Source of the DNA: a virus | Lineage: Duplodnaviria; Heunggongvirae; Uroviricota; Caudoviricetes | Strand: one strand, 5' to 3' | Virus record (IMG/VR): IMGVR_UViG_2698536647_000006 | Length of the DNA stretch: 17,791 bases | Shown here: one piece after another, positions 1 through 16,423 of the stretch | How positions within the stretch are numbered: the first letter of the stretch is position 1 | Layout of the letters: each line of letters starts with the position of its first letter | Made by a program: the position numbers and the translations under genes | The notes under the pieces: generated by a model | Database searches by the model: none | Told to the model about the DNA's origin: nothing | Seen by the model: only the letters and a program-made list of their open reading frames with translations

Positions 1-162
1 TCACTGGTAGGCAGGTGCTCGCATCATTTCGCGGAACCTGTCGCGACGGGCTATATCGGCATTAACTGAGCGTTCTATCTCCCGTTGATCTACCTGTGTA
101 AGCTGGTGGCCTCCGTGCTCAAGTTTGGCGATGGTCAATAAGGCTATTTCGCGTGGTGTCAT
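1..162 (-). CDS. Hypothetical small protein (53 aa)
   Basis: Manual minus-strand translation: ATG at 162-160, TGA at 3-1, giving MTPREIALLTIAKLEHGGHQLTQVDQREIERSVNADIARRDRFREMMRAPAYQ. It is below the 60-aa cutoff of the supplied ORF track. Purine-rich AGAGGG lies ~8 nt upstream. No family recognised. Confidence 0.3.
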   Translation of the reverse strand: MTPREIALLTIAKLEHGGHQLTQVDQREIERSVNADIARRDRFREMMRAPAYQ

Positions 163-837: not shown

Positions 838-1278
838 ATGGTCTTTGCAATGAGCAAATCTAATCTGATCGCGTTCCGCATCCCATCTGAATTGCAGGAT
901 GAGTTTAATCGGTCTGTTCTCGCTTCTGGAGGGGATAAAACCTCCTGGCTTGTTGATGCGATTCGCATGAAGCTGGGACAGATGGAAAAGTCTATTGATT
1001 CACGAATGCTTGGGCTGGTGGAGCGCATGGAAAAAGCCGCAGCATCGCTTATTGCCGGAAAGCCGAACATCCCACCAAAGCCATATAACGAAACGGCAGT
1101 TATAAAGATCATTGCCGATACCATCCGACAGGGATTTGATAATGGGCGTGTGATAGCTGAACGGCTCAATGAAGCAGGCTACCAAACAAAAGCTGGTAAA
1201 GCGTGGGATAAAGACATTTACAGCGCGTGGAAGCGTCAGGGTAACAATATTAAAAGAATCAATACGCTGCTTCAGTAA
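838..1278 (+). CDS. RHH (Arc/CopG-like) DNA-binding protein, 146 aa
   Basis: The N-terminus NLIAFRIPSELQDEFNRSVLASGGDKTSWLVDAIRMKL fits a strand-helix-helix pattern. The C-terminal segment IAERLNEAGYQTKAGKAWDKDIYSAWKRQ resembles the helical DNA-binding module seen in recombinase-type proteins. Start could be the ATG at 850 (MSKSNL...). Confidence 0.55.
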   Translation: MVFAMSKSNLIAFRIPSELQDEFNRSVLASGGDKTSWLVDAIRMKLGQMEKSIDSRMLGLVERMEKAAASLIAGKPNIPPKPYNETAVIKIIADTIRQGFDNGRVIAERLNEAGYQTKAGKAWDKDIYSAWKRQGNNIKRINTLLQ

Positions 1279-1307
1279 TTGATCAGTGTATAAATGATAT
1301 TTATCGC

Positions 1308-2330
1308 TCAATCGCTCCCTTTCCGCCCTTCAGCTACAGGGTCGTTGTCGGCGATAACAAAACCTAAGTCCTGAGAGAATCTCTCTCGTGGGAATCCTTT
1401 AGCAGGTAAACCCATTGAATCATATCCACATCCGGGAACATTTGGTTTAGAGTCAATAAGGTCTGCAATTTGCCGAAGCCATGTTGATCCCGGACCAAGT
1501 TGTTTAACTAAGTACCAGATAATACAGATCGCGCTAAAAATCCTCTCGCAACTCTCTGGATGGAGATTAAGTCCGTCAAAGTATTCATTATCCGGTACTG
1601 GAACTCGGGGATGCTTTCTATTCCATATTCTGGAATGGTGAGCGCAACGATTCCTTATGAGATTAAGGCACTTCAACCATTTTGCAAATGTCTGCTTATT
1701 ATCAATGCCAAAACGACGTATAATTTTCCCCTGCATATGACCATTAAGCATCGCATAATATTTAGACATCTGACCAAAATCCCAGGTCTCCACCGCCACC
1801 CAAAATGGAATCTCCTTGCCTTGGCTTCGATGCCATTCAATACAGTCATCTCTGCTTTCGTCTAATTTTACTTTTTGCTTATACACCCAATGCTCGAAGG
1901 CAGATGAGAATTTTGGATTAATGTATTTTGATGACATGTAGGCAAGTGGATCATTGCGACCAACCTCATGCGCGATGACTGAACGAACATGAATCTCTAT
2001 TCTTTCGATAGCATCAATCATCAAAAGACGCAGTTTTTTGTCAAAAAGATATAGATCGTACGTCTTCTCGAAACTGGTACCAGCAAGAAATCGGTCTGTT
2101 CTGTACGAAAGACCTTTATCTGTTGTCGCAATAATTCTTGATGGGTACCAAAAACCTGACAATCGATAATATCCAACCTGCGACAGCTTACGTATCGCAC
2201 GATTTCGATCATTGATAATCATGCCACGTTCAAGTAGCAATCCTAGCAATTCGTGATAGTCCTTATGAGGCTTTGCGGCAATCATAGTGGCGAAACAAAA
2301 GATAATAAAAGGCCCGACCGTGAAACTCAC
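1308..2330 (-). CDS. Abi_2 family abortive-infection protein (AbiD/AbiF-like)
   Basis: Length ~325-340 aa. N-terminal KPHKDYHELLGLLLERGMIINDRNRAIRKLSQVGYYRLSGFWYP and C-terminal LNLIRNRCAHHSRIWN match motifs I associate with lactococcal AbiD/AbiF-type proteins. The true start is probably the internal ATG at 2285 (MIAAKPHK...). Confidence 0.7.
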   Translation of the reverse strand: MSFTVGPFIIFCFATMIAAKPHKDYHELLGLLLERGMIINDRNRAIRKLSQVGYYRLSGFWYPSRIIATTDKGLSYRTDRFLAGTSFEKTYDLYLFDKKLRLLMIDAIERIEIHVRSVIAHEVGRNDPLAYMSSKYINPKFSSAFEHWVYKQKVKLDESRDDCIEWHRSQGKEIPFWVAVETWDFGQMSKYYAMLNGHMQGKIIRRFGIDNKQTFAKWLKCLNLIRNRCAHHSRIWNRKHPRVPVPDNEYFDGLNLHPESCERIFSAICIIWYLVKQLGPGSTWLRQIADLIDSKPNVPGCGYDSMGLPAKGFPRERFSQDLGFVIADNDPVAEGRKGSD

Positions 2331-2455
2331 ATGCCTGAAATCGGCGGCGGAGAAACAGAGGATCGGGCTCGGTTGCCTGTAACTCTATCCGAAGTTATCC
2401 ACATGTCAATGCACAGTTACTTAGGAAACTAACATAGATACTATCATCACTCACG

Positions 2456-2478
2456 AAAAACCACTATATGTGGTTTTT
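2456..2478. terminator. Perfect inverted repeat AAAAACCAC-TATAT-GTGGTTTTT; possible bidirectional terminator or insulator
   Basis: 9-bp arms read directly, flanked by A/T runs on both sides; lies upstream of the Abi gene start. The stem is AT-rich, so terminator strength is uncertain. Confidence 0.35.
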
Positions 2479-3157
2479 ATTCATATCGTTATCCACTACA
2501 GGCTGTGTCAATAATTTTTACCTATTAATTGGGTAATTTCTACATTTTCCTATGCTGGCTAGTTTCTCTACTGAAAAGTTGGCACTCCTTAATCGCTTTT
2601 CGGTTAATACTATCGGTCTTCATATTGCCAGCAGCATACGCCATCCGATAATTTCGATGCTACGCGCGCGTACTTGTCGCAAAATATCAGGCAAAGGCCA
2701 GATTCAGAACGTCGTGATAACCACCAGCACAACATGAGATGTCATGTAACGCGATTTATCACACCAGATACATGTGATTGGTGTACCCGCATAAAACATT
2801 GTCATAGCGCGTCCTGTGCGCATATACGCCGATAATCAACACATCACCACCACTCTGACTTATGTAGAGAACAGTTTCATGGTATCCCCCGCCATCGTGT
2901 GCGTACTGGTCGGACGCAGTTGCAAAAAATTTTGCAACTGATACCCCTCGCGCGCGTACTTGTCTCGAAATTGGTGTTTTGCTGTGGCAGTGATATCAGA
3001 AAAATCTTCCTGTTTCACATAAAGCGGATATGCGCGTACTGTAACGACCCCATCAACTGGGAGCGGATTTGAAATCCCGACCCAAGCTATGTACCAAATG
3101 CCATGTCTTGGATATATGATGATTGCCATTCTAAACAAAGCTAAAGGGAGGGTTGGT

Positions 3158-3508
3158 GTGAATGCTCAGGCTGTCATCATGGTTTTACTTGGTCTGATTG
3201 TCGCAAAACTATATCCAGACTGGTGGAAAGGGGTATTAGCAACTGTCGCCATCTATTTGCTTTTATCCGTCGTTAAGCGATCGTTCGTTAAGACCGTAAA
3301 TCAAGCAAAACGTTTCTCATTTAAGAATTTAATAAACTATATTACTGGGCTTATTTTTTGCCTTTCAATTTTGATCGCTTCAGCTTTTTTGCCCGTATCA
3401 ATAGCTAATTTTTTTGGCGCACCATATGAGGTAGGTTATCTATTCTCTGTTTTTTGTCTTGTTCTTTCCCTTCTTTACCTATGGATGAGAGCAAAGAACA
3501 AAAATTAG
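3158..3508 (+). CDS. Small integral membrane protein (~116 aa, four predicted TM helices); candidate immunity/partner protein
   Basis: Four hydrophobic stretches of ~15-23 residues. Strong RBS AAGGGAGG (3144-3151) sits 6 nt before the GTG at 3158; the ORF-track start at 3089 has no RBS. Convergent with the 701-aa gene. Confidence 0.5.
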   Translation: MNAQAVIMVLLGLIVAKLYPDWWKGVLATVAIYLLLSVVKRSFVKTVNQAKRFSFKNLINYITGLIFCLSILIASAFLPVSIANFFGAPYEVGYLFSVFCLVLSLLYLWMRAKNKN

Positions 3509-3522
3509 CCATCCATGGCTAA
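3500..3522 (-). terminator. Hairpin TTAGCCAT-CC-ATGGCTAA in the 18-nt gap between convergent stop codons, followed by TTTTT on the minus strand
   Basis: Read directly between stop 3506-3508 (+) and stop 3527-3529 (-). On the minus strand the stem is followed immediately by a T5 run, fitting an intrinsic terminator for the cargo operon. Confidence 0.45.
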
Positions 3523-3526
3523 CCAG

Positions 3527-5632
3527 TTATTGAGATTCTTTTTGTGATGCCTGTGCGACTCTGGTGAGCGATTGTGTGACCGTACTGATCGCTCTGTCAT
3601 ATGCTGTGCTACCTTTTGGCGTATTTGCCAGACGTAACAAGGCATTTCGTATAACAGGGCTTTCGTATGCCTTCGCTGCTCCGCCTACGACACCAGCAGC
3701 AGGAACAACAAACGCAGCCGTTTTTAGCATCCCCGCTAATACTGCTGCGTTTATGATGCCACCACCAACTAACAATCCATAAAGCTGCTGACCATTTAAG
3801 TTTTGAACGTTCGCTTTTGCCGCGTGTCTTGTATCATTGAGGTATTTAATAACGCCGTCCAGTTCCTTTCCATATACGCCTTTAAAGAAAGTTGCTGATT
3901 GCTTCCTGTTCCGGTGTAACGCATTAATAAACTTCTCAACACTGATATTTCCAGACGGATCAGTCGCCTTATCTACAGCATTCTGAACTATGGCGGCTCG
4001 TGCGTTTTGCCTACCATTGTCATCCAGAAGCCTGTAAAGCTGAGAACGTTCTGATGGGTTTTGGCTAAAAACGAGTTTTGTTACATCCTCAGGCGTGGCC
4101 TTGCCGCTGGCTATTGCCTTTTGAACGCGCGTTCTTCCCATCATGTCATTGAATCTAGCCCATGAGCGATCAACCCTAGACATATTGGTAGCTTCTTCTG
4201 AGCCTAGTTTTTGGGATACTGCTTTTTTCATATCCGCTGTATATGCCTTGTAGACAATATCGCTGGCTTTCTGGAGCGTGTCTTTATCAACAGTCTCGTT
4301 TGAATTCATGAACCGCTTTCGAAGGTCAGTTCTGTTTTCTCTCGCCAGACGCAGGTCATTGGGTCCGCTGGTGATATCGTCTTTAAATTGCTGCAAGACT
4401 TTTACCGCGGCTCTATCCTGAGATTTGCCCGGTCGGCTTAACACGGCAATCTGATTGTCGATAGCTTTTACCGTGTTTGAGAGATCGACAGGGGTATCCC
4501 CCATAGCGTCAATTATGCGGTTATATCGCTTTCCTGCTGCCTCAATGAATTTTTGCTGCCCTTTAGTCGCAGACTCATAAAGCTGTTTATCTGAAATTCC
4601 CCCCAGACCATCGCTAAATGTTCTGACTAAATTTTCTCGTGCTTGTTGTTGATTCAGTCGGTTCTTACCGGTTCCAAAAAAAGGAAGTCTTTCGCCTAAT
4701 GTCTGAGCCTGACTCTGCATAAAGGTTTTATCTTTCAGCATGTCACTGGTCATTAACGGCAGATTTCTTTCCGATGCAAAGTCGACAGCAGCCTTTGCTT
4801 CAGGCGACATATCACCACGAACAGCCCTCGAAACCGCACTCGCTGTATTTTCCAGCCCCTTACCAATACCACCAATGCCAGCAGAAATTACCGTTTGTAA
4901 CGGATCAATATCTTCTCCACCAGCAAGGCTGGTGGCTCCCTGTAGTGCTAAATCTGTAGCTGCTGATTTTCCTATGGCACCAAGCACCGTTCCAGCCCTG
5001 CCCGCTGGTGTAAACGCCAACGCATTAGCAAGAAACGAAGTCAGGTCTTGCGGTGATAAACCCGGCTTGTTTAGGGCATAATCACCTGATGGCAGAGAAA
5101 CGATAGTATTCCCCTTCTCATCCTGCCTTAATGTCGCCCCCATTCCCTGAAGAATCTTTTCCTGAGACGCGTCAGAGCCGAAAAGTTGAGACCATCCAGC
5201 CTTTAAGGCATCCATGCTTAGTGAGTTCAATTCTGGGGCAGAGGCGACATTTTGCAGTCTCTCCATCTCTGGAGTCATTCGGCTTTCGCCTGTTATAGCA
5301 TCGCGCATCGCAGCCCCAAGACTGGCTCCCTGTTCTGCTGAACGCTCAAGCCCCTCTCTTTGCTGAGTAGCTAACTTTGCATACCCTGACGCAAGAGAAT
5401 TATCAGATGATGTATGTTGAATATTTTGAGTTGCTGATTGGGATCGGTCTATTTCATTCGTTGATGGCAGTGGATAGGCAGCATAAAAAGCCTGCTTAGC
5501 CTGCTCTACACTTTCTCCGGCTTGCGGGGCCACGACTTCATTGAAGTATTGCTCCTGAGCCTGCGCTTTTTGTTCTGGTGCTAACGCCTGATACTGTGGA
5601 GAAGCGATAACATCTTTCCATGCTTTAGCCAT
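3527..5632 (-). CDS. Hypothetical 701-aa low-complexity (A/G/Q/S-rich) protein with a C-terminal hydrophobic helical hairpin
   Basis: Long ORF whose ATG (5632-5630) overlaps the upstream stop as TAATG, with GGGG 6 nt upstream. No P-loop or other catalytic motif seen by eye. Hydrophobic segment LYGLLVGGGIINAAVLAGML-KT-AAFVVPAAGVVGGAA lies ~48 residues from the C-terminus. Confidence 0.8.
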   Translation of the reverse strand: MAKAWKDVIASPQYQALAPEQKAQAQEQYFNEVVAPQAGESVEQAKQAFYAAYPLPSTNEIDRSQSATQNIQHTSSDNSLASGYAKLATQQREGLERSAEQGASLGAAMRDAITGESRMTPEMERLQNVASAPELNSLSMDALKAGWSQLFGSDASQEKILQGMGATLRQDEKGNTIVSLPSGDYALNKPGLSPQDLTSFLANALAFTPAGRAGTVLGAIGKSAATDLALQGATSLAGGEDIDPLQTVISAGIGGIGKGLENTASAVSRAVRGDMSPEAKAAVDFASERNLPLMTSDMLKDKTFMQSQAQTLGERLPFFGTGKNRLNQQQARENLVRTFSDGLGGISDKQLYESATKGQQKFIEAAGKRYNRIIDAMGDTPVDLSNTVKAIDNQIAVLSRPGKSQDRAAVKVLQQFKDDITSGPNDLRLARENRTDLRKRFMNSNETVDKDTLQKASDIVYKAYTADMKKAVSQKLGSEEATNMSRVDRSWARFNDMMGRTRVQKAIASGKATPEDVTKLVFSQNPSERSQLYRLLDDNGRQNARAAIVQNAVDKATDPSGNISVEKFINALHRNRKQSATFFKGVYGKELDGVIKYLNDTRHAAKANVQNLNGQQLYGLLVGGGIINAAVLAGMLKTAAFVVPAAGVVGGAAKAYESPVIRNALLRLANTPKGSTAYDRAISTVTQSLTRVAQASQKESQ

Positions 5633-7080
5633 TAATCACCCCATAGTGAAGAAAAGTTACTGCTGGCTGCTGGCTGTGATACCTGTGCAGGTTGAGATTG
5701 CTGCCGCTGAGATTTACCAACATTAACGTTATATTGCTGGTTGTAATTGTCGGTATATTGCTGAATGTCGCGCATTGATTGTTGTAGTGCTTCAGGGCTT
5801 GAGAAATCAGGCTTTGGCATACCCTGAAAATACCTATTGGCCTCTGCTTCGGTGTTGATGCCAGATGCCCCCATATCTCGGGCTGCCGCAATCCCCTGAT
5901 TTTGCATTTTGCCCATGATTCGCTGTGCAGCGTTGTATAGTTTCCTCTCCTCAACACCAGATGCCCGGCTACGAATATCTGCACCAAGAGCAAAAGAACC
6001 TGAAGAACCTGTAATACCTGTCATGAAGCCAAGATCGTCAATTGATGCGCCAGAAATTGCATCAAGATCTTTCTTCATTTCGTAATTCTGCGCATTAGCT
6101 GCCGATGTAGCCGGAGCAGCAATAGAACTTGCGGGGACGCGAATCATATTGCCCTCGTTGTCTATTCCTTCGTAGAACGCATTAGCACCAGCGCCGTGAA
6201 GCTTCCTACCAACCGTTACCGTTCTACCATCTGCCAGTTGCACAACATTCTCCCCGCCAGCAGCAGGACGGCCTCGAACACGAAGATATGTCTTTTGTTG
6301 CTCTGGAGACAGGCTGTTGAAATATTGATATTCTTTAACAGATGCAGGAACAGCACCTCCAGCAGTGCGCAGAGAGTTTTCACGGCTAACAGCAATGCTT
6401 TGCGCCTGTAAACCTTCCCCAGCTTTATTGCTGCGAATCGTCTCTGCCAACTCGCCACGCTCAATATCCCGACCCTCCATTCGATCTTTGATATCGAAGT
6501 ACTTCTCATGACCGAGAGAAAACAGCGCCAGATTACCTGCGAAATGCTGGAAGCCCTGCGGGTCATTAACCTGCATTTCAGCAATAGTTTCTGGAGGGAT
6601 ACCTAAACGACGCATCTCCTGCTCATTATCCATCATGAACCTGCCAAATGCGCCCGGACCAAGCGATGAGGCTACCTGTGCTTTGAGCGCCAGATTGCCA
6701 TAATCATCCCTTTGAGCATCATCGACATAACTCATCCCTTTACGGACTTCCTCAAACTCTTCTGGGAATGCTGTAATAAGATTACGCATCTGCTCCCTGT
6801 CGCCGGACGCATAAGCATCTGCATAACCTTTCTGGAATGCCGCTTTACGCTCCTGCTGTTGCTGCTGCTTATAAATATCAGCAACTCCAGCCAGACCACG
6901 TAACGCGGTCAGACCAACGTTATTTGCACCTGAGCGAGCCAGTTCATTGTTTTCGCGGATCAGACCAAGCGTTGCGTTAATGTCGCTTGCCTTTGGCGCA
7001 TTCTCATTTTGCGTACCGATGCCAGCCAGAAAACCACCAGAATTAATACCCTGTTGCCACGTAGCCATTGATTTACCCAC
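5632..7080 (-). CDS. Hypothetical 482-aa low-complexity (Q/G/A/N-rich) protein, translationally coupled to the 701-aa gene
   Basis: Long ORF with no recognisable enzymatic motif. The track start is GTG at 7080; an alternative ATG at 7068 lies 4 nt after the stop of the 57-codon ORF. Confidence 0.8.
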
Positions 7081-7246
7081 GTCCAGTTAAAGTGTAAGCC
7101 AGCGCCTTATCCATTAATCCCCGAGCAATTTCGTGGATCGTTGGCGCAACTCCTACCTCTGATTTTTTACGCTGCTCCTCCTGAATTTTCTTTATCGCTT
7201 CCATTTGCTTCTCACTTATCAATACTGGCTTTACTGAAATAGCCAT
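7073..7246 (-). CDS. Unannotated 57-aa ORF, RHH-like; first gene of the cargo operon
   Basis: Manual translation: ATG 7246-7244, TAA 7075-7073, giving [66 protein letters not shown] lies 4-5 nt upstream. Below the ORF-track cutoff. Confidence 0.45.
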
Positions 7247-7261
7247 AACGCCCCCTTAGAA

Positions 7262-7277
7262 CTGTATAAAACAACAG
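7262..7277. promoter_or_regulatory. LexA (SOS) box CTGT-N8-ACAG
   Basis: CTGTATAAAACAACAG read directly, with an AT-rich spacer. About 14/20 positions match the E. coli consensus TACTGTATATATATACAGTA, including both half-sites. A perfect TATAAT on the minus strand (7285-7280) lies just upstream, though no good -35 was found. Confidence 0.55.
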
Positions 7278-7341
7278 TTATTATAGTTTCACAAATCGCA
7301 ATATTCATCATCGTAATTGCAAAATATGAAACAAATAGCAC

Positions 7342-7374
7342 AAAAAAATGCCACCGCTCAGTAGCTGGTGGCAT
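7342..7374 (-). terminator. Rho-independent terminator (minus strand) separating the primase/iteron region from the cargo operon
   Basis: Minus strand reads ATGCCACC-AGCTACTGAGC-GGTGGCAT followed by TTTTTT: an 8-bp GC-rich stem plus T6. Confidence 0.6.
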
Positions 7375-7568
7375 CGTTCTGTATGTCAGGTTTTGACAGG
7401 TTTTTTATGGACTCTAAAAACTATATTTATGGTGTCGCATTACTCTTCACGGCAGGCGCTTTCCAGTTCTGCCCTTGCTTCTGGCTCCATTGGTAATTTG
7501 ATTCGCGATCAGCTATGCGGATGGTTTGCTGAACAGGCATAACAACTTCTCAAAGGCTGTTTTTTGAA

Positions 7569-7644
7569 CTACGAAAATTTCGTAGTGCTCACTTTCAAAA
7601 ACGTCACGCCCTTGTACACAGGATTTTACGAAAGTCTCGTAAAA
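7569..7644. promoter_or_regulatory. Two related palindromes: CTACGAAA-A-TTTCGTAG (7569-7585) and TTTTACGA-AAGTC-TCGTAAAA (7624-7644)
   Basis: Both read directly and share inverted TACGA/TCGTA half-sites, centre-to-centre ~57 bp apart. They lie between iteron cluster B and the cargo-operon promoter; candidate operator sites. Confidence 0.35.
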
Positions 7645-7694
7645 CACTCTCTGATGCCAGCCAGGTGTTGTGCGCATCAATTCAGTCACATTGT

Positions 7695-7810
7695 GTTGGT
7701 TCAAAATACCGTGTTGTTGGTTCAGTGTTGGTTCAATAAAAAGAATAAAATCCTTATAAAACAATACTCTTTACAAATTGAACCAACTGAACCAACTGAA
7801 CCAACACCTT
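7695..7810. repeat. Iteron cluster B: three spaced GTTGGTTCA (7695-7703, 7716-7724, 7727-7735) plus three tandem TGAACCAAC (7779-7805)
   Basis: Direct reading; mirror image of cluster A. Lies immediately 3' of the primase-helicase gene, so it is a candidate ori. Confidence 0.7.
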
Positions 7811-7830
7811 TTCTACGCACATGAAGAAGC

Positions 7831-10587
7831 TCATTCTTCAGATGAGTTATAATCTCCAGGCTGGTAATTGAGTACATAAACGTTTATTTGTCGTCCCTGA
7901 ATACGTGGTGATTTTCTTTGGTATCCACGACCGCTGTTTGGTGGGGTTAGCATCCCGGCTTTTTTCAACACTTCAGCAAACTGTTTTGCGTTGAAACCAC
8001 ATGCGATCTCCTTTTCAAATGTGGCCGGGAATGTGTAGAAAATCATTGGGCTTTCGTCATGTTCTCCACGCTGACGGTATCCGGCCAAATCTTTGATGGG
8101 CAAATCTGCCGGGCTGTATGGAAATGGTGCAAAACGGCTAAGCCCATAGGCATTAAGAAATGCCTCCGTTTGTTCAATAATCTGCTGATGTTCTTTGTTA
8201 CCTGTGCCGAACTCGCGCAACCATGCGTTATAGCTGTGCTGTATCGCATCACGGCATGTCTGAGCATCCCAGCCTGTTACAACCTCGCCTAACAGCAATG
8301 CGGCCTCCAGAATGGCAAATCGCGCGGCTACACGGTGAACCTGCTCACCATAATCGGATGGGATCAGACTTCTCCATCTGCTTTCGCAGTCACGAACAGT
8401 TTTAATTGCCTGTTGCTGGTGGTCTGCCAGCCATTTAATCCACTCACGCCCGGCTGCGCCGTGGTGATGCTGGTAAGCGTCTTTCAGTGCGTCTGCGTGC
8501 TGTTTTCCGTTCTGGTAATCGTGAAAGCGTACTGCTTTACTCAACGGAATATTCAGCAGTCGCACCAGTTGCCCGGCTTTGGTTTTTCGCCCGGAAGTAG
8601 CGATAAATGTTTCTAAATCCATTTCTCCAGTGCTGATTGCCACTGTACGCCAGCGTTTTAGATCCCGGTTTCCACCATCTTTAGCGCCTTGCAGTTTCCC
8701 TACACCGTTAAATAACGCATAGGCAGACTGTGAAACACTGACAGGATCAGCGCCCTGACCAACTTCATCAAGCGGTATTAGTCCGTCATTGTGGGCGGCG
8801 GCTTCATTTGCCAGCCCCAGCGCGGTTCCGTACCACGTCAGCCGCAATAAATCAGGGTTGCCGTATAAGCTGCTCGCCACGTTTGCCGTGGTGGTCTTAC
8901 CTGCGCTCGACTGCTCATAGAAATGAATGCCGAACCCGTCAGCGCCCACCAGCCCAATCAATGGCGCTGCCAGTGCTGCGCCGATCCCGGTCATCATTGA
9001 ATAGTTACCAAAGGCCAGACGCGCCACGTTATCACGCCAGCTTTTCGCGCTCCCTGAGACGGTATATCCGGCTGCGGCTGAGCTTCTCCCGCTGAACAGC
9101 ACAGGATTTTCAGGTGTTCCGATGATTTCCCCATCAGGCATGATGTACGCTCCGCATTGCCAGCCAGTGGCATGAGCAACACGCCACAATTCACGAGAGC
9201 CACTGCGTTGTAGCCAGTCTGCCAGTATTGCTCTGAGGCTGCTTTTGGTCGTGACATTTACCCCACCAGCTTTAAGTGTGCGCCATCCTTCACGTTCACC
9301 AATATCAGCCAGTGGAATAGCAGCGGTTGTCGGCGTTTCAGAACCAAACGACAGCCAGCGAAGAATGAGATACTGGTCTTTATCGTCTCTGCCAGTACCG
9401 ATAACGCTTAACGGAGAACATAACCAGCTTTCGTTATTGATGATTTCTCCACTCTGGCTGTCAGCTCTCGGAGATACCCAATAAATACCATCCTCGCGGC
9501 TTTCTATTCTTGGTTTCAGTGGGTCGGTATCCATAACCTTAAAATCGCTTCCCTCAATGGTCTGTGGCTGCTGTTTCACGCCATTACCCTGTGGTTGGTA
9601 CATTGACTTATTGAACGCTTCTGTGGCGCATTTAATGCCGTGTTTTTGGTGGTAATCATTCCAGTCTGCTTTGTGATCTGTCGGGGGTAATGCCACCCAT
9701 CCAGAAACAGATAAAGCTGCTTTTTCTGCTGCTATTCTCCCCGTGTTTTGTCTTCCTTCGCTGTGGTCGTTATCCGCAGCAATGATGATTTGTGCTGAAG
9801 GAAATTTATCCCGCAGTACCTGGGCGACATATAACAGGTTCCCGGCATCAATCGCCGCCACTGTCAGCGATTCTGGACGAATTAAATGGGCAGATAATGC
9901 CGTTGCCAGCCCTTCTGCGATTAAGATGCTCTGTGTTGTTTCTGGTGCGTTTATGGCGTGATATGCCCCTCGCTTTGCTGAACCTGTCAGGAGTCTTTTT
10001 TCACCATGTGAGGTAATAGTCTGTGCTGCTGTGACTGCGCCGGATTTATCCACCAGCGCCAGCAACAGAGATCCATCGGGCAACACTGGGAATGTAAAAT
10101 CACCTACCCCTTTCGCAACCAGATAATCAGATTTGCCGTTTACAGCCTTTCTGCGCATGTCATCAAACTGACGGGAAAACGTATCCCGTCTTTGTTGTTC
10201 GTCCTTCTCTGCCCTTTTCAGGCGCTCCTGTTCGCGTCGCTGGCGCTCGGTTTCCAGTTGTTCCCGTTTCTGGCTGGTGGCTTCTGGTGTTTCCGTTGTC
10301 CGGTAATCAATACCCAGAACATCAGCGGCAAGCAGCGCCGCCTCTGTTGTGTCGCAGTTATTTACGCGTTTAATTAAATCCAGCCCATCACCAGCGCCGC
10401 ACTGATTACAGATGAAGCTACCGCGCCCGTTGTCATCGAACCGGAATCGATCTTTGCCCCCACATGCAGGGCAGGGAGCATGACGGCGCGGAGAGTCAGG
10501 GACATTTATGTTCAGGCAGCCCAGCACATGAGGCCAGTTGTTTTCAGACGCACTGATAACCTGACGGATAAGATCAATGTTTCGCAT
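7831..10587 (-). CDS. Primase-helicase (zinc-ribbon primase, TOPRIM, P-loop NTPase), 918 aa
   Basis: Cys-rich N-terminus CPACGG...CNQCG; TOPRIM-like IAEGLATA...AADNDH; Walker A SSAGKTT and Walker B-like IPLDEVGQ. GGGGG RBS 5 nt upstream of the ATG at 10587. Architecture resembles satellite-phage replicases such as P4 alpha. Confidence 0.85.
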   Translation of the reverse strand: MRNIDLIRQVISASENNWPHVLGCLNINVPDSPRRHAPCPACGGKDRFRFDDNGRGSFICNQCGAGDGLDLIKRVNNCDTTEAALLAADVLGIDYRTTETPEATSQKREQLETERQRREQERLKRAEKDEQQRRDTFSRQFDDMRRKAVNGKSDYLVAKGVGDFTFPVLPDGSLLLALVDKSGAVTAAQTITSHGEKRLLTGSAKRGAYHAINAPETTQSILIAEGLATALSAHLIRPESLTVAAIDAGNLLYVAQVLRDKFPSAQIIIAADNDHSEGRQNTGRIAAEKAALSVSGWVALPPTDHKADWNDYHQKHGIKCATEAFNKSMYQPQGNGVKQQPQTIEGSDFKVMDTDPLKPRIESREDGIYWVSPRADSQSGEIINNESWLCSPLSVIGTGRDDKDQYLILRWLSFGSETPTTAAIPLADIGEREGWRTLKAGGVNVTTKSSLRAILADWLQRSGSRELWRVAHATGWQCGAYIMPDGEIIGTPENPVLFSGRSSAAAGYTVSGSAKSWRDNVARLAFGNYSMMTGIGAALAAPLIGLVGADGFGIHFYEQSSAGKTTTANVASSLYGNPDLLRLTWYGTALGLANEAAAHNDGLIPLDEVGQGADPVSVSQSAYALFNGVGKLQGAKDGGNRDLKRWRTVAISTGEMDLETFIATSGRKTKAGQLVRLLNIPLSKAVRFHDYQNGKQHADALKDAYQHHHGAAGREWIKWLADHQQQAIKTVRDCESRWRSLIPSDYGEQVHRVAARFAILEAALLLGEVVTGWDAQTCRDAIQHSYNAWLREFGTGNKEHQQIIEQTEAFLNAYGLSRFAPFPYSPADLPIKDLAGYRQRGEHDESPMIFYTFPATFEKEIACGFNAKQFAEVLKKAGMLTPPNSGRGYQRKSPRIQGRQINVYVLNYQPGDYNSSEE

Positions 10588-10599
10588 TCTGGCCCCCGT

Positions 10600-11202
10600 T
10601 TAGTGCGTCACTGGTGCTTCTGGGATGCCGTTTTCGTTTAGTTCGGCAATAAAGCTGTTGTGAAGATCGGCAAGCACTTCTCGCCCAAACGAAGTGAGTG
10701 TTCCCTGTTCGACATCGAACATGTTGCTGTAAAAAATGATGGCATTATTTGTTCCGACATCAACACCATATTTCTCGATCATTGCGCCCTCAATGTTGTT
10801 TGCCATAGCGAGGCGCTCTGCTACTGGATACAGCGGCATGGCGACGATGCCATTGGAATAAACAGAAACCACGGAATGATTGCCACTGTCATCAATAATG
10901 CTGACGGTGCCGTTTTCCTTTCTCATTTCATTGATGAATGCTGTTGCTATCAGCCAGCGCCACATAATCACGTGATGCTGTGATGTGTAATCGAAATATC
11001 CCTGGTTGCCGCCACTGGCAATAGCGAGATGTATAAACATGCCTTCATCTGGTTTATCGTCATAATCCCCGGCATCCAGACGATTTACGGCATCAATATA
11101 TGAGACGGTATCAACGCGTTCTGTCATGCCATCGTTGCTGCGGTACATGATGTTTACGCCGTCAGGCGTTGCTTCTGCATGGAAAGTTAAGAAATTATTC
11201 AT
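10600..11202 (-). CDS. Hypothetical protein (~200 aa)
   Basis: ORF-track frame 10600-11307. The likely start is the ATG at 11202 (MNNFLTF...), which overlaps the upstream stop as ATGAATAA. No family recognised. Confidence 0.55.
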   Translation of the reverse strand: MNNFLTFHAEATPDGVNIMYRSNDGMTERVDTVSYIDAVNRLDAGDYDDKPDEGMFIHLAIASGGNQGYFDYTSQHHVIMWRWLIATAFINEMRKENGTVSIIDDSGNHSVVSVYSNGIVAMPLYPVAERLAMANNIEGAMIEKYGVDVGTNNAIIFYSNMFDVEQGTLTSFGREVLADLHNSFIAELNENGIPEAPVTH

Positions 11203-11416
11203 GTTTCGCCTCGCCTGAATGATTCTGTAACTCATATTTGCCCAACAATTCGTCCGCTTCCTGAATAGCTTCTGGTACGCCATTGAGCAGTGACATAACC
11301 GCGCCAATCATTAACTTGTCTCTGTTGCTGGGGCTGGCCCCTTCAAGCCAGAACCCTAAAACAGTCTGAACCTGTTCGATGCGACATTGCGCTTCAATGA
11401 GCTGGATGTTGGTCAT
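11195..11416 (-). CDS. Hypothetical small protein (73 aa)
   Basis: ORF in the co-directional, overlap-coupled gene chain; no family recognised. Confidence 0.5.
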   Translation of the reverse strand: MTNIQLIEAQCRIEQVQTVLGFWLEGASPSNRDKLMIGAVMSLLNGVPEAIQEADELLGKYELQNHSGEAKHE

Positions 11417-11676
11417 TTCGCACTCTCCACATCGATTAAACCGATATCTATCAGGGAGGTAACTTTTTGTAGCCAGCTATTGATTACTGTCGCCTGTTCC
11501 CCTCCCACCGAGGGAACAATCTCATTCATCACATGAACCAGACCTGTGCGCGCTCTGGTAAGCCGTTCAGTCGCGCAATCTGCGGGAGTGAATGTGTCTG
11601 GATATGGCTCTTCGCGCCCCAGCAATGATTCAATTTCCAGCTCACACGGATGACGATAAATTAAGTTGATATTCAT
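11413..11676 (-). CDS. Hypothetical small protein (87 aa)
   Basis: ORF in the co-directional chain with a 4-nt overlap to the neighbouring gene; no family recognised. Confidence 0.5.
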   Translation of the reverse strand: MNINLIYRHPCELEIESLLGREEPYPDTFTPADCATERLTRARTGLVHVMNEIVPSVGGEQATVINSWLQKVTSLIDIGLIDVESAK

Positions 11677-11867
11677 TTTTCACCCCCAAGAATTACCAGC
11701 TCGGCACGGGCATCGTTAACCAAAGATGAGCGCGCTTTAATCGCATCCACGACATCAGCAGCGTCCATTTCTTCAGCCGAAAGACTGACAGCAACCGGGA
11801 CAGCCGCTGCTTGCTCGATTAATTGAAGTGCGGACGTAAGGCGAGGGGTATTAATTGAGTTATTCAT
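11673..11867 (-). CDS. Hypothetical small protein (64 aa; track ORF extends to 11924)
   Basis: The ATG at 11867 is preceded by GGGGG and overlaps the upstream stop as ATGAATAA; the longer track start has no RBS. Confidence 0.5.
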   Translation of the reverse strand: MNNSINTPRLTSALQLIEQAAAVPVAVSLSAEEMDAADVVDAIKARSSLVNDARAELVILGGEK

Positions 11868-12078
11868 TGGTTGCCCCCGTTTTGCATGGCATTTGTCCAC
11901 CTTCCAGCAGGAAATGAACGTCACGAACGGCGAGGTCCAATATCGCGAGTAACGCCTTCAGTTTTTCGTCTCGTGAGGGAGAGTTGCTCACCAGAATGTC
12001 GTTAATCACTTCTGTCAGTGTGATGATCTGGCTTGTGCGTTCGAGGGGATCCATATGCACATCGTAGGTTTTAATCAT
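11860..12078 (-). CDS. Hypothetical small protein (72 aa), nested in-frame at the 3' end of the 355-codon ORF
   Basis: ATG at 12078 with GGAGG 6 nt upstream, overlapping the stop of the 12071-12265 ORF as ATGATTAA. Product [30 protein letters not shown]... looks protein-like. Confidence 0.45.
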   Translation of the reverse strand: MIKTYDVHMDPLERTSQIITLTEVINDILVSNSPSRDEKLKALLAILDLAVRDVHFLLEGGQMPCKTGATNE

Positions 12079-12927
12079 GTGCCACCTCCATGCGGATACG
12101 ACCAGCAAAAAAGCAGATGTGATCGCGCACCAGAGAACGGCGAGCATCGCGTTCAGACTCGGCAGCAATATGATGAATTTTGGCGGTAATTGTCGGGCAA
12201 TCGCGGCGAACTGCGGCGATAATCCAGATAAATTGCGTTTTTTGGGTAGGGGTAGTAGCCAGCATGTGGCAGCCTCCTTCAGATAGCAGGTTACGCTACC
12301 ACCGGAAACGCCAATTTCGCTGGTGGTAGCCCAGACAGGGTTGGCGTAACCGGCTCTGAAGGATACCGGCGCTTCCGAAGAAGCCCCCGCCTGAGCCACC
12401 ATTGATTGACAAAGGCGCTGGATTATACACCAACGCCCAAAAAATGGGTGAGTCAGACCTACGACATAAAAAAAGACGCTCGGCGCGTCATATGTCGCCT
12501 TCAGAATTTTCAGGACGCCAATCCCGGCACCCGTTTTATGAGGTGCCTTATAACCATAAACCGTGTTGCCGCATAACGGCAAGCTCTTTTTTATGGACTC
12601 CGAAAACTCACTATTGGAAGAACCAGAAGCACAGTACATCGCGCTCATTTCGTTAACGTCACGCGCGTGGACGAAGGTTTTTGTGGAGTCACTACACGAG
12701 CAGAGAAAGCCATCTACGACCAGAAATTCTCTGGCATAGCCGCTGACCTTCTCAACGCTAACACCATCGACCGTAATTTCTGACATAGTTAAGGCATCCG
12801 CTCCTACCACCAGAAAATGATAAACTTTGCTTGTATCTGCTGTATTAATGTCTGACTTTGCTGTCATATTGCTGGATTTTGGCGACATACCAGCCAGTGA
12901 AAATATCTTCTTCTGGGCGGTTAGCAT
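11860..12927 (-). CDS. 355-codon ORF, probably composite; the 5' ~220 codons may be a real gene
   Basis: ATG at 12927 with GGAGG 7 nt upstream, and no in-frame stop until 11860. The middle segment overlaps a strongly RBS-fronted ORF in another frame and reads as low-quality protein; hairpins lie inside it. Confidence 0.3.
12071..12265 (-). CDS. Hypothetical small protein (64 aa)
   Basis: ATG at 12265 with a perfect AAGGAGG 7 nt upstream. It overlaps the long 355-codon ORF in a different frame. Confidence 0.4.
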   Translation of the reverse strand: MLATTPTQKTQFIWIIAAVRRDCPTITAKIHHIAAESERDARRSLVRDHICFFAGRIRMEVAHD

Positions 12928-13103
12928 TTGTTAACCTCCGCGAACTCCTTCATGAAACGTGCCAGCGGTTGTACGCATGGCGATTGATACCCGTCGCGAT
13001 AAAACGTCACTCGGTTGTGAGACACGCTTTCGACAGTAACGAGTGCTCCGTGGGCATCTTTGTAGCGTTTTTGAGGTTGTGGTGTTCCTGTCGGCTTAAA
13101 CAT
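12921..13103 (-). CDS. Small conserved island protein (~60 aa; possibly DUF4222-like)
   Basis: ATG at 13103 (MFKPTGTPQPQKRYKDAHGALVTVESVSHNRVTFYRDGYQSPCVQP...) overlaps the upstream stop as ATGTTTAA. Resembles small prophage proteins I recall; family unverified. Track ORF extends to 13190. Confidence 0.45.
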   Translation of the reverse strand: MFKPTGTPQPQKRYKDAHGALVTVESVSHNRVTFYRDGYQSPCVQPLARFMKEFAEVNKC

Positions 13104-13929
13104 GGACCGCCTCCAGACGCTTGGCGAGCCAGCGTTGCGACAGGCGGGTGAGTTCTCCTTTGCGCTGCTCATATTCCATGCCCATATCAATTAACGTGAT
13201 ATTGGTGCTTTCGAGATATGAGAGGTGCTCAAGCTGTTCTGCGTTCATATGGTCGCGAGGTTCGCCAGAATAGCCATTTATCCGCGCCCACTGCTTAGCA
13301 GTTAGCCCACCAAGAACGATACGAGAAATCATATTGCTCTCGTTTGTGTAGTGGTGTTGCTGCGTCGTTTTCCCCTGCTCGGCACGGGCCATATTCAGCG
13401 CATCGCACATTGGCTTAAAGTTGTTTGCGGCACTAATACGGGCTTTTAGCTGGCGACGATAGCGGGCGGCGATTTCAGGCACGCTACGCTGTAATTCTTC
13501 CTCGCACTGGATGAAATAACGACGGATAGCGCGACCCTGATCATTGCGTTCGATCATTGCCAGTTCTTTCGCCATTCCGACACTTAACAGATAGTCTTTG
13601 CCGGGTCTGCCAGACTGCTTAATCTTGCTGTAAGCCGCGCCATTCGGGCTTTTCCCCAAATTTGGGGAAATTGTTTTATGGACTGAGTAATCGTGCCCAA
13701 TGGTGAAGTCATATTCAGAGATGCGATCAGTGATCCATGTAGAGAAGTCTTTTCCCACGCCCAACGCTTTGTGTAACGCTTTTGCGCTAACAATATTGGT
13801 TTCACGCCCACCGATATGACCAGGAATAACCGGGACAATTGCGGCAAATTCATTACCGTTAATTGTGCCCAGAGAGGCGTTCAGATGAGGGGCAGCCTCA
13901 GAAATTAATCTGCTTTTTTCGATGTTCAT
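13096..13929 (-). CDS. Phage antirepressor-like protein (AntA/KilA-C type), 277 aa
   Basis: N-terminal VSAKALHKALGVGKDFSTWITDRISEYDFTIGHDY matches the AntA-type motif as I recall it; the C-terminal half is helical. Family call from memory. Confidence 0.6.
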   Translation of the reverse strand: MNIEKSRLISEAAPHLNASLGTINGNEFAAIVPVIPGHIGGRETNIVSAKALHKALGVGKDFSTWITDRISEYDFTIGHDYSVHKTISPNLGKSPNGAAYSKIKQSGRPGKDYLLSVGMAKELAMIERNDQGRAIRRYFIQCEEELQRSVPEIAARYRRQLKARISAANNFKPMCDALNMARAEQGKTTQQHHYTNESNMISRIVLGGLTAKQWARINGYSGEPRDHMNAEQLEHLSYLESTNITLIDMGMEYEQRKGELTRLSQRWLAKRLEAVHV

Positions 13930-13941
13930 TTTCAGTCTCCG

Positions 13942-14373
13942 TTAGGCGGCGTTAAACGCGTCCGGGTAGAGTTTCAGAATGTCGGCAATTTCCTGCTGAG
14001 AAAGTCCGTTGTGATCATTTATGTTCGCAAGATGGTTAATATGAGTGATCACTTTCAGAACATCACCACGGCAGGAGAAACGGTAGCGAAGGTGTGTTCC
14101 GATACCATCAGGATTCTTTTCGTCGATACGCTCCAGAGTGATTCCAAGCTGGCGTTCTAACTCTGTTGCATAGTTACGACCAGAAGACAGACGGCAGTAG
14201 CGAAGAATGTCATTTTCTGTCCATCCCTCTATACCAGTACGCAGCATATAGACTCTGGCACGATGCTTTTTCGGTGTGCGCTTTGGTGCTTGAAGGGATT
14301 TTGTAAGGGGCGTAACATCAGATACACGAATATCTGAATTAGCCGCCTGTAATGGGCGGTTTTTCTTTTCCAT
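13942..14373 (-). CDS. Hypothetical protein (143 aa)
   Basis: ORF immediately downstream of alpA with a 1-nt TGATG stop/start overlap; no family recognised. Confidence 0.55.
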   Translation of the reverse strand: MEKKNRPLQAANSDIRVSDVTPLTKSLQAPKRTPKKHRARVYMLRTGIEGWTENDILRYCRLSSGRNYATELERQLGITLERIDEKNPDGIGTHLRYRFSCRGDVLKVITHINHLANINDHNGLSQQEIADILKLYPDAFNAA

Positions 14374-14576
14374 CAGGCCATCTCGTCTCTAGATTCTAAT
14401 ATACACTTCTCAATCCATTCATCTATTTCAGACTCAACAAAAGCAATTGCCCGACTTCCAATTTTTACCTGTTTAGGGAACCTCCCCTGACTAATAAGAC
14501 GATAAATCCATGCTTTGCTATAACCAGTTCGCCTTTGAACTTCAGAGAGACGAATTAATGAATTGTAATTAGCCAT
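14373..14576 (-). CDS. alpA: AlpA-family phage regulatory protein (small HTH activator/excisionase-like)
   Basis: 67 aa; LIRLSEVQRRTGYSKAWIYRLISQGRFPKQVKIGSRAIAFVESEIDEWI matches the AlpA/Vis-type HTH pattern. Sits next to the integrase, as usual in tRNA islands. Confidence 0.85.
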   Translation of the reverse strand: MANYNSLIRLSEVQRRTGYSKAWIYRLISQGRFPKQVKIGSRAIAFVESEIDEWIEKCILESRDEMA

Positions 14577-14967
14577 TTATTAATATCCTGTACTAATGAC
14601 GCAATAACCCCCTCCTGCAACGAATGGCGAGAGTTTTATTTGCGTCAAATGCCGAATACGCCAAAGACCACAATATGAAAAACATATTGCGGTCTTTTAT
14701 AAAAGATAGTCAGATTGTTTTGGTTTGTTTGCTCCACAAGGGTAGAGCTACCCTGCATTTCGGCAGGATCACGCTATTAGGCGTGACATCCAGTAGTTTT
14801 AAAGAACATTCCGCTTTGTCAGCGACGTAGAAGGCTCAATACACCTTCGTTTATAAAAGAGCGATTGCCCTTCTCCAGGGCTAACTGTTAAATAGCAATC
14901 CTCTGTGAGTTTTTATCAATCTACTCCCCTATACTTTAGTAAACCTCTGTATACTTGTCCAGTTGTT

Positions 14968-16182
14968 TCATGCGTGTTTTTCAAACACCATATGCACCAC
15001 ATTTCCGCCATGCTCGAGAGAATCCATATAGTCGGCATACCATTGAAGCATCTCCCGCCTTCCATCCAGATATTGCGCATGGTTGTATGTGCCACGAATT
15101 GAGTTCTTATCAACGTGAGCGAGCTGCGTTTCTATCCACGCGGTGTTATAGCCCTGCTCATGCAAAATCGTACTCATAGTGTGCCGGAACCCATGACCAG
15201 TTACACGTCCAGCGTAGCCAATGCGCTTAAACACTTGGTTTATGCTGGCCTCGCTCATTGTTTTCCTTGGATCATTGCGCCCGGGAAACATAAGAGGGTA
15301 ATTGCCTGTTATTTCTCTAATCTTCCCAATAAGCGAAAGAGCCTGCTCAGACAATGGCACAATATGAGGCCGCCGCATTTTCATACGTGAAGCGGGTATC
15401 TCCCAGATAGCCTTGTTGAAATCAATTTCATCCCATAATGCGCCACGTAGTTCGCCAGTCCGCAAGCCGGTGATAATCAGTAGACGAGCCGCCATAACAA
15501 CCAATGCGCTTCCTGAGTAACTGGACAATGCCTTGAAAAAATCAGGTAATTCTTTGGCTGTAAGGAAAGGGTAATGATTAGATTCATGGCCTTGCATCGC
15601 GCTAGTAAGGTCTGGTGCAGGGTTATACTCTGCGCGACCAGTGACTATTGCATAGCGGAAAACTTCCCCGCACCGCTGCCTCACTTTTTTGGCTTTTTCT
15701 GTAGCACCGCGCCCCTCGATGCGCCGCAGCACATTCAGAAGTTCAAGTGGTTTGATTTCGGCGATTGGTTTTTTGCCAATGTAAGGGAACACATCTTTGT
15801 TGAAGGCTTCGAGGATGTCTGAAGCATAACCAGCAGACCATTTTTTTAATTTGCTGCTGTGCCACTCAAGGGCAATATCTTTGAAGGTGTTGTTTAACTG
15901 CGTTTCCCGGGCAATCTTTTCCTCTCGTTTCGCTTCCATCGGATCGATACCACCAGCGATACCTCTTTTCGCATCTTCACGTTTTGCCCGAGCATCGGCT
16001 AGAGTAACCTCAGGATACACACCTAGTGCCAATAGCTTCTCTTTACCAGCTACACGATATTTAAGTCGCCAGTATTTACCTCCATTAGGTTTTACCAAGA
16101 GATACAAACCGCCACCATCGGCCAGCTTGTAAGCCTTCTCTTTTGGCTTGGCTGTGTCTATTTGACGGGCATTGAGTTTCAC
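14968..16182 (-). CDS. int: P4-type tyrosine integrase
   Basis: 404 aa; N-terminal arm-binding pattern LADGGGLYLLVKPNGGKYWRLKYR and C-terminal catalytic region HGFRHT...LAH...Y. Starts at GTG 16182 with GGAGG upstream. Adjacent to the tRNA 3' end. Confidence 0.9.
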   Translation of the reverse strand: MKLNARQIDTAKPKEKAYKLADGGGLYLLVKPNGGKYWRLKYRVAGKEKLLALGVYPEVTLADARAKREDAKRGIAGGIDPMEAKREEKIARETQLNNTFKDIALEWHSSKLKKWSAGYASDILEAFNKDVFPYIGKKPIAEIKPLELLNVLRRIEGRGATEKAKKVRQRCGEVFRYAIVTGRAEYNPAPDLTSAMQGHESNHYPFLTAKELPDFFKALSSYSGSALVVMAARLLIITGLRTGELRGALWDEIDFNKAIWEIPASRMKMRRPHIVPLSEQALSLIGKIREITGNYPLMFPGRNDPRKTMSEASINQVFKRIGYAGRVTGHGFRHTMSTILHEQGYNTAWIETQLAHVDKNSIRGTYNHAQYLDGRREMLQWYADYMDSLEHGGNVVHMVFEKHA

Positions 16183-16347: not shown

Positions 16348-16423
16348 TGGTGCCGATAATAGGAGTCGAACCTACGACCTTCGCATTACGAATGCGCTGC
16401 TCTACCAACTGAGCTATATCGGC
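16348..16423 (-). tRNA. thrW: tRNA-Thr (anticodon CGU), intact with 3' CCA; island attachment site
   Basis: Minus strand reads GCCGATATAGCTCAGTTGGTAGAGCAGCGCATTCGTAATGCGAAGGTCGTAGGTTCGACTCCTATTATCGGCACCA, 76 nt with anticodon-loop TTCGTAA. Matches E. coli thrW as I recall it, and lies next to proA as in E. coli. Confidence 0.9.

Follow-up and report, generated by a model that had tools for sequence, protein, structure and literature searches.

A conserved structured leader RNA upstream of an AbiF-type gene: a probable type III toxin-antitoxin cassette in a thrW-integrated satellite-like island

The AbiD, AbiD1 and AbiF proteins and their relatives are described as HEPN RNase toxins, each with a small upstream non-coding RNA (ncRNA) as antitoxin (PMC12373285, PMC13064643, PMC12737573). 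In the AbiF group the RNA has a cis effect, early termination of transcription, which keeps toxin expression low, and in addition it attaches to the protein and obstructs the active site; the pair is a type III toxin-antitoxin and has been proposed as an ancestor of Cas13 (PMC12373285, PMC13064643, PMC12737573). The model of the C. difficile system AbiFCd-RCd22 is of this kind: the RNA ends transcription early, in cis, and binds the toxin, in trans (PMC12373285). In the lactococcal AbiD/AbiF group a conserved upstream sequence is reportedly needed for function or for tolerance of the gene (PMC13064643). Here we describe an abiF-type gene in a 17,791-nucleotide (nt) DNA of a tailed virus (Caudoviricetes; IMG/VR record IMGVR_UViG_2698536647_000006), the whole of which is called the window below. 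Since the published AbiD/AbiF systems have two components, the region upstream of the open reading frame (ORF) became the key one to examine.

Directly upstream of the gene, on the same strand and in what is predicted to be the same transcription unit, there is a conserved structured ncRNA. An earlier annotation made from the letters of the window (the sequence-only reading) had presented the gene as a single-gene defence candidate. This description is not supported, as the structured RNA is supported by covariation and is preceded by the gene's own promoter. We interpret the locus as an AbiF-type type III toxin-antitoxin/abortive-infection module, a cassette of ~1.35 kb in the variable slot of a thrW-integrated island resembling P4 and the phage-inducible chromosomal islands (PICI), and assign to this reading a probability of roughly 0.68. 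The features are as follows, with the evidence in brackets.

1308..2285, minus strand: abiF-type coding sequence (CDS), 325 amino acids (aa), start ATG 2285, stop 1308-1310, predicted Abi_2/HEPN RNase toxin (Pfam, PADLOC, 8vz6, AlphaFold2, RefSeq)
2286..2330, minus strand: in-frame extension to GTG 2330, non-coding, overlapping the 3' half of the leader hairpin and the U-tract (homologue N-termini, RefSeq, L002/L003, covariance model match 2297..2377)
2297..2377, minus strand: conserved structured leader RNA, candidate AbiFr-like antitoxin/attenuator (covariance model R1, covariation, folds)
2382..2409, minus strand: sigma-70-like promoter, TTGACA-16 nt-TAGAGT (promoter scan)
2456..2478, no strand assigned: perfect palindrome hairpin AAAAACCAC-ATATA-GTGGTTTTT with the shape of a bidirectional terminator, upstream of the promoter (read from the sequence)
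1249..2592, no strand assigned: variable cargo cassette comprising the hairpin, promoter, leader RNA and abiF (blastn breakpoints against islands without abiF)

The AbiF-type gene and its start

The minus-strand ORF 1308..2330 was confirmed (340 aa if counted from GTG 2330), and its translation contains, exactly as the sequence-only reading had quoted them, the motifs VGYYRLSGFWYPSR and LIRNRCAHHSRIWNRK. The assignment to the Abi_2 (AbiD/AbiF) family made on their basis is correct. The two profile comparisons that were proposed with it are both significant: Pfam Abi_2 (PF07751) matches with 178.4 bits, the gathering cut-off being 25.6 (E=2.3e-52), over positions 2-184 of a profile of 184, and the PADLOC model AbiD (PDLC02344) matches with E=5.7e-58, its positions 4-269 (of 277) aligning with residues 19-310. 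The profile phrog_2158, "abortive infection resistance protein", also matches (E=1.9e-56). No specific model for an abiF-type protein was found in NCBIfam. The identical sequence in RefSeq, annotated by PGAP, is WP_021538549.1, "Abi family protein" of 325 aa, corresponding to 1308..2285. The homology to PDB entry 8VZ6 ("PbAbiF dimer bound to ncRNA") extends over the full length (E=4.2e-36, residues 4-301).

The AlphaFold2 (AF2) model, built on an alignment of 27 sequences, has a predicted local distance difference test value (pLDDT) of 90.4 and a predicted template modelling score (pTM) of 0.86. A Foldseek search of PDB with this model yielded 8vz6_A as the sole significant match (E=7.5e-16, template modelling (TM) scores 0.76/0.83). 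The HEPN Rx4H motif is R211-N-R-C-A-H216, and its R211/H216 pair is aligned with R210/H215 of PbAbiF, whose double-alanine mutant was reported to be inactive (PMC12373285). Residues R211, N212, A215, H216 and H217 are invariant in the 27-sequence alignment, which holds homologues at 50-75% identity. The C-terminal ~20 residues are modelled with low confidence and are confined to the closest clade. Thus the protein has both the Rx4-6H motif and, in the predicted model, an all-alpha fold resembling the solved HEPN/AbiF proteins. Judging by sequence and predicted fold, this is a genuine gene for an HEPN RNase of the Abi_2/AbiF family.

Other signals within the gene were discarded. A Pfam HTH_28 match (E=0.065, under the cut-off) and flavodoxin matches in NCBIfam and PDB (E=0.04-0.6) are noise, and the ORFs 1560..1865 (plus strand), 1673..1849 and 2021..2212 (both minus strand) are shadow ORFs within the strongly supported CDS.

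The gene starts at ATG 2285 (325 aa) and not at GTG 2330. That the annotated start was 45 nt too long had already been suspected in the sequence-only reading, and five lines of evidence agree with it. Firstly, the representative of the 100%-identical cluster has 325 aa, and homologues at 61-75% identity have ~320-334 aa. Secondly, in the 27-sequence alignment the N-termini of the homologues (MIAAKPHKEY...) line up with Met16 of the long ORF, that is, with ATG 2285. Thirdly, the closest loci, L002 and L003, have no upstream in-frame start codon. Fourthly, the 45-nt extension 2286..2330 falls within the conserved structured RNA and its U-tract. Finally, the RefSeq protein begins at the same ATG. 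No recognisable Shine-Dalgarno sequence precedes ATG 2285.

The leader RNA

In the window, the ~80-nt stretch following the promoter terminates in GGUCGGGCC-UUUUAUUAUCUUUU. Judging by the geometry of the promoter, transcription would start at about 2375, where the conserved RNA has its 5' edge. The leader begins with the 5' box AACCGAG. The outer helix P1 is formed by pairing of 2361-2368 with 2312-2319 (GCCCGAUC/GGUCGGGC), and the conserved junction CCUCUG...CAC encloses a variable hairpin, P2 (2320-2357). From 2311 downward follows the U-rich tail CUUUUAUUAUCUUUU. The whole element folds as a long bipartite hairpin (P1 and P2) with conserved unpaired nucleotides AAYNG, CCYCUG and YAY, and the minimum free energy fold of the window copy, computed from the single sequence, agrees with the comparative structure. 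A simple terminator scan passed over this hairpin, since the scan accepts loops of 3-8 nt and thereby excludes long bipartite stems.

Conservation of the element was analysed in 80 loci encoding homologues at 41-68% identity, from Enterobacterales, Pseudomonas, Vibrio/Photobacterium, Pasteurellaceae, Shewanella, Betaproteobacteria, Desulfobacterota (including cable bacteria) and a metagenome-assembled genome of Nitrospirae. The leader was found at the equivalent position in 78 of them; one of the two exceptions has no upstream sequence and the other is disrupted by an insertion sequence (IS). The order of elements is as follows: the -35 box TTGACA, the 5' box AAYNGNG, P1 (GCCCGRNC/GNYYGGGC), CCYCUG, P2, YAY and a pyrimidine- or U-rich tail. 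The tail (CCUUCUUGUUUCU) is situated 10-60 nt before the start codon. TTGACA is present upstream at five or more positions of six in 73 of the 78 leaders, and in 67 of them the hexamer begins 34-36 nt ahead of the AAYNG box. This distance is fixed, and therefore the conserved RNA begins at the inferred transcription start.

The secondary structure is supported by compensatory changes. In a plain MAFFT alignment of 50 distinct leader copies (A2), on which a structure of 17 base pairs was scored, 91.3% of the cells are paired; sliding the 3' partners by 1-3 columns lowers this to 31-44%. Fourteen of the 17 pairs have compensatory double changes, and none of 500 shuffles matched the observed pairing values. 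For instance, P1 is GCCCGAUC/GGUCGGGC in the window, GCCUGAAC/GUUUGGGC in a Pseudomonas and GGCGUAGC/GCUACGUC in Pasteurellaceae. In an independent prediction with RNAalifold, 16 of these pairs were recovered.

From A2 we built a covariance model, R1. Applied to the whole window with the filters off, it produced one significant match, with 50.6 bits and E=8e-13, at 2297..2377 of the minus strand; the second-best match has E=0.8. Across the loci there is exactly one match per locus in 80 of 81, always on the strand of the gene, and the single locus with no match has no upstream sequence. The matches include L009, L023 and L081, which are absent from the seed alignment. In 79 loci the match is directly upstream of the gene. 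The remaining one is L053 of Candidatus Electronema halotolerans, where the leader (1..49) is separated by 3 kb, with two transposase-like ORFs (502 aa and 393 aa), from an abiF gene (3007..3936) that misses approximately the first 20 codons. This looks like a natural IS disruption that has split the RNA from a truncated toxin gene.

R1 also matches upstream of AbiF homologues at 31-35% identity in two high-GC human-gut contigs (27-28 bits, E~1e-6). In these human faecal "Bacteriophage sp." contigs (L083 527..588, L084 517..577) one can recognise P1, CCUCUG, P2, CAAG and a UUCUUG tail. By this sequence match they extend the range of the element past the phyla sampled in the 80 loci.

The invariant nucleotides of the leader are mostly unpaired or located at helix junctions, which fits recognition by a protein better than a plain terminator. 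This bears on a different explanation, namely that the protein is a single-protein Abi and the leader is purely cis-regulatory, an attenuator and/or translational operator that plays no part as a protein-binding antitoxin. The model for it is the 5' untranslated region (5'UTR) of lactococcal abiD1, bound by a phage protein that switches translation on; AbiD1 is reportedly controlled via a structured 5'UTR and a prematurely terminated transcript (PMC12373285). The same explanation would account for the hairpin and the U-tract ending directly before a start codon that lacks a Shine-Dalgarno box, and agrees with the treatment of AbiD as a single gene in PADLOC. However, the invariant unpaired nucleotides and the conserved 5' box at the very start of the transcript exceed what a terminator needs, and the closest solved relative, 8VZ6, is a protein-RNA complex. 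We consider a purely cis-regulatory leader unlikely.

A feature of many Pseudomonas copies (e.g. L005, L020, L026, at ~2985..3003) is an apparent TTG start preceded by GGAAG. Since this GGAAG and the conserved tail CCUUCU are complementary, the tail might also cover the ribosome-binding site. In the window copy a Shine-Dalgarno-like sequence of the GGAAG type is absent.

The relationship of the leader to the described abiF RNA motif was analysed with Rfam 15, in which no family matches the element; the leader yielded only chance-level matches to snoRNA, miRNA and STnc50, and 20 related loci gave no credible family either. As a positive control, RF03085 matches the leader in C. difficile phage phiC2 with 37.6 bits. 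The PbAbiF locus was recovered from rumen and gut metagenomes (protein identity 100%); a scan of viral contigs did not find it. The PbAbiF leader is ACCACUAGAACCCGCCAAGCCUCUCAACGAUGCUCAAAUGUGCGGGUCGUUUUAUUUUUAUACA-AUG, consistent by eye with the RF03085 consensus. The two types of RNA have in common the position, the GC-rich closing helix (CCCG../..CGGG), the CCUCU box after the 5' arm, the 3' junction of the UCAA/YAY type and the U-rich tail. A short form of the leader, devoid of P2, is found in L018 and L022, and from its sequence it looks like an intermediate between the types.

A model for the action of the module can be proposed by analogy with PbAbiF/AbiFr and C. difficile AbiFCd/RCd22. 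Most transcripts would stop at the hairpin and U-tract, and so the small RNA would be in excess over the protein. AbiF would dimerize via the HEPN domain, R211 and H216 being joined into an RNase site, which the bound leader RNA would occlude. Infection or loss of the cassette would halt the resupply of a labile RNA, or the RNA would be displaced in some other way, liberating AbiF. Free AbiF would then cleave cellular and phage RNA non-specifically, leading to growth arrest and an aborted phage burst. The clade-specific helix P2 could be a determinant of the specificity between cognate toxin and RNA. If so, several AbiF paralogues or alleles could coexist and swap at island hotspots.

Several observations weigh against the two-component interpretation or leave it open to doubt. 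The window has no match to RF03085 at the gathering threshold or even at E<=10 (regions 1200..3100 and, as a 151-nt fragment, 2270..2420), and 20 related loci have none either, so that the leader falls outside the described motif. R1 in turn matches PbAbiF-type leaders with 13 bits and E~0.15, although at the cognate position in 7 of 11 PbAbiF-like loci. At such a score the homology of the two RNA types is suggestive, not shown; from the shared sequence features the leader is probably related to the abiF/AbiFr RNA, as an extended and divergent form. The hairpin of the window copy does not significantly exceed shuffled sequence in stability (z=-1.3), and a fold of 2270..2420 had a z-score of 0.75, also non-significant. 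Thermodynamics alone is insufficient to flag the leader, and it was the comparative data that revealed it. The U-tract is interrupted (CUUCUUGUUUCU) in most clades, and hence the efficiency of termination is uncertain. For this clade, expression of the RNA and its termination, its binding to the protein, the toxicity and the resistance to phages are predictions by analogy, and we found no experimental report on it in the literature searched. It is a tentative proposal that the leader forms a distinct, uncatalogued RNA family of several phyla, an extended relative of the abiF/AbiFr antitoxin RNAs absent from Rfam 15; we hold this to be somewhat less probable than its opposite.

The cassette and its island

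The cassette 1249..2592 is flanked by conserved backbone, on one side the 146-aa ORF 838..1278 and on the other the sequence from 2593 onward. In blastn comparisons with E. coli islands lacking abiF the homology breaks at 1248 and at 2593, 2598 or 2654. The same slot in these islands is occupied by an ImmA/IrrE peptidase with a hypothetical protein, by a helix-turn-helix (HTH) protein, or by small hypothetical proteins, and R1 has no match in them. Therefore the promoter, RNA and gene travel as one cassette, and the RNA and abiF are gained and lost jointly. The sequence-only reading was right to see the gene as cargo of a satellite-like island; the slot is variable, as its breakpoints and alternative contents show, and the island is integrated at a tRNA gene (thrW).

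Sequence belonging to the part of the island from PerC to the injection proteins is present in 735 of 5426 complete E. coli genomes. The 1.4-kb query 1100..2500, comprising the gene, leader and promoter, is covered by at least 80% in 73 of the 5426, with 76 records at 99% identity or higher. These counts are at odds with a decaying, non-functional remnant, an explanation to which the weak -10 box (TAGAGT) and the missing Shine-Dalgarno sequence could point. Moreover, the ORF is full-length with all invariant residues in place, the RNA structure is intact, and weak expression is what one expects of a toxin gene. A remnant is therefore very improbable.

Another possibility is that the module is mainly an addiction or stabilisation toxin-antitoxin keeping the island or the slot, with no meaningful protection of E. 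coli from phages. The type III toxin-antitoxin architecture and the location in a mobile island with an integrase and tRNA are compatible with it, and for C. difficile AbiFCd toxicity and neutralisation by the RNA are established, and in the reports consulted we saw no description of a clear phage-resistance phenotype (PMC12373285). On the other hand, lactococcal AbiD, AbiD1 and AbiF were first found through phage-resistance phenotypes (PMC13064643), and the exchange of different cargo in the slot is a pattern typical of defence hotspots. This role as the main one seems improbable, and we favour the toxin-antitoxin/abortive-infection module. No mention of Abi2, AbiD or AbiF was found in the papers on P2/P4 hotspots that were consulted.

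Two neighbours were considered as partners of abiF and rejected, the convergent 146-aa ORF 838..1278 and a membrane-like 139-aa ORF 3089..3508, since they have no PADLOC or Pfam match and persist in islands without abiF. In Rahnella woolbedingensis (L004) the sequence 3997..4113, 82% identical in nucleotides to window positions 1132..1248, belongs to a homologue of the same 146-aa backbone gene. It adjoins a different AbiF allele (51% aa identity) with a leader RNA of its own, which suggests that AbiF alleles have been exchanged at one island slot across Enterobacterales.

The region 2410..3035, ~625 nt upstream of the promoter, is not annotated in RefSeq and contains short unsupported ORFs and the palindrome 2456..2478. 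A similar palindrome lies at the matching place of the Raoultella locus L002. From its shape and position it may insulate the module against read-through. The sequence from 2593 onward is 97-98% conserved in islands without abiF.

The window ends with proA and tRNA-Thr(CGU) (16348..16423), that is, the thrW site. The genes of the island near thrW encode a P4-type integrase, AlpA, an Ash-family protein and a primase with Zn-ribbon, Toprim and DUF927 domains. Farther away there are two genes for P22-like ejection/injection proteins, the abiF cassette and the regulator PerC, and the island extends past the left end of the window. Thus the characteristic components of P4/PICI-like satellites are present: a tRNA-adjacent integrase, AlpA, a primase and P4-type immunity RNA of the C4/CI type. 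No capsid, terminase or tail genes were seen in the island, so the label "satellite-like" is reasonable but unproven. No psu/delta/sid or PICI packaging genes were recognised among the larger ORFs scanned.

Matches to the Rfam families C4 antisense RNA (79.9 bits, 12319..12406, minus strand) and isrK (67.8 bits, 12469..12546, minus strand) adjoin each other inside the RefSeq "ash family protein" ORF 11860..12927. This looks like the immunity/regulatory RNA region of P4-type elements, and part of the ash ORF call may be spurious. A C4 match is also found in the Salinicola locus L047 (6545..6633), ~2.5 kb downstream of its abiF homologue. The ejection/injection genes 3527..5632 and 5632..7080, both on the minus strand, match phrog_770/29117 ("DNA transfer protein") and Pfam Inj_translocase/phrog_917. 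Ejection proteins of its own are unusual for a satellite-like element, and its helpers may be P22-like phages. Past PerC and the left end of the window, locus L001 of E. coli AR_0017 (7238..16009) contains a pRiA4b ORF-3 family gene and an integrase remnant, followed by the vat autotransporter toxin gene with a MarR regulator; between these and yagU lie fragments of IS1 and of another integrase. Thus the thrW site seems to have been assembled from two islands or more.

The gene itself is ordinary and already annotated, and Abi_2 genes are counted routinely in surveys of E. coli defence islands (PMC10121019). The only mildly new element is the leader RNA. Its support is robust, its phylogenetic range is broad and Rfam does not contain it, yet a partner of this kind was to be expected from the mechanism published in 2025. 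The useful correction concerns the functional unit, which is probably the whole cassette and not the ORF alone. If the ORF were cloned by itself, or from the GTG start, the probable antitoxin/attenuator RNA would be missing or cut short, and the construct might be unclonable or misbehave. R1 provides a concrete RNA signature for a large proteobacterial clade of AbiF that current RNA and defence databases leave unannotated. If the RNA family is indeed a distinct one, many "single-gene" AbiD/Abi2 calls made by defence-finding tools in proteobacteria are RNA-protein toxin-antitoxin pairs.

Comparison with known systems

The closest described system is PbAbiF-AbiFr of Prevotellaceae (8VZ6; Zilberzwige-Tal et al., Cell 2025). 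The proteins are homologous over the full length (~28% identity in the Foldseek alignment), the predicted fold superposes with the TM scores given above, and the catalytic R/H pair aligns. In both cases the ORF is immediately preceded by a structured RNA, in which the outer stem is GC-rich and a CCUCU box and a U-rich tail are present. However, the RNA of the window is approximately twice as long, as a variable P2 of 7-9 bp (or longer) is present between CCYCUG and YAY. RF03085 misses it, and R1 gives the PbAbiF leader 13 bits.

The RF03085 abiF motif (Weinberg et al. 2017) resembles the leader in its position upstream of Abi_2 genes, the GC-rich closing stem and the CCUCU box. It differs in being 37 nt long with an inner helix of 3 bp, and it leaves the window and the 20 related loci unmatched.

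AbiFCd-RCd22 of C. difficile phi027 has the same arrangement of promoter, ncRNA, terminator-like stem and then an Abi_2 HEPN toxin, with co-transcription and a location in a mobile element (PMC12373285). RCd22, however, consists of two RF03085 motifs and a separate terminator, whereas in the window there is one larger hairpin that is at the same time the terminator-like stem. The proteins are ~29% identical, and AbiFCd resides in a prophage lysis module, the gene of the window in a satellite-like island.

The lactococcal proteins AbiD, AbiD1 and AbiF (the AbiD/F group) match the same Pfam family and the same PADLOC model, but their sequences are distant, and their genes are plasmid-borne in Gram-positive hosts.

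Finally, the type III systems ToxIN and AbiQ are analogous in that an RNase toxin is checked by a cis-encoded RNA, a terminator sets the RNA:toxin ratio and the outcome is abortive infection, all of this being predicted on the side of the window. The toxin folds are unrelated, and the ToxIN/AbiQ antitoxins are tandem 36-nt repeats processed by the toxin, whereas the RNA of the window is single-copy and has no repeats.

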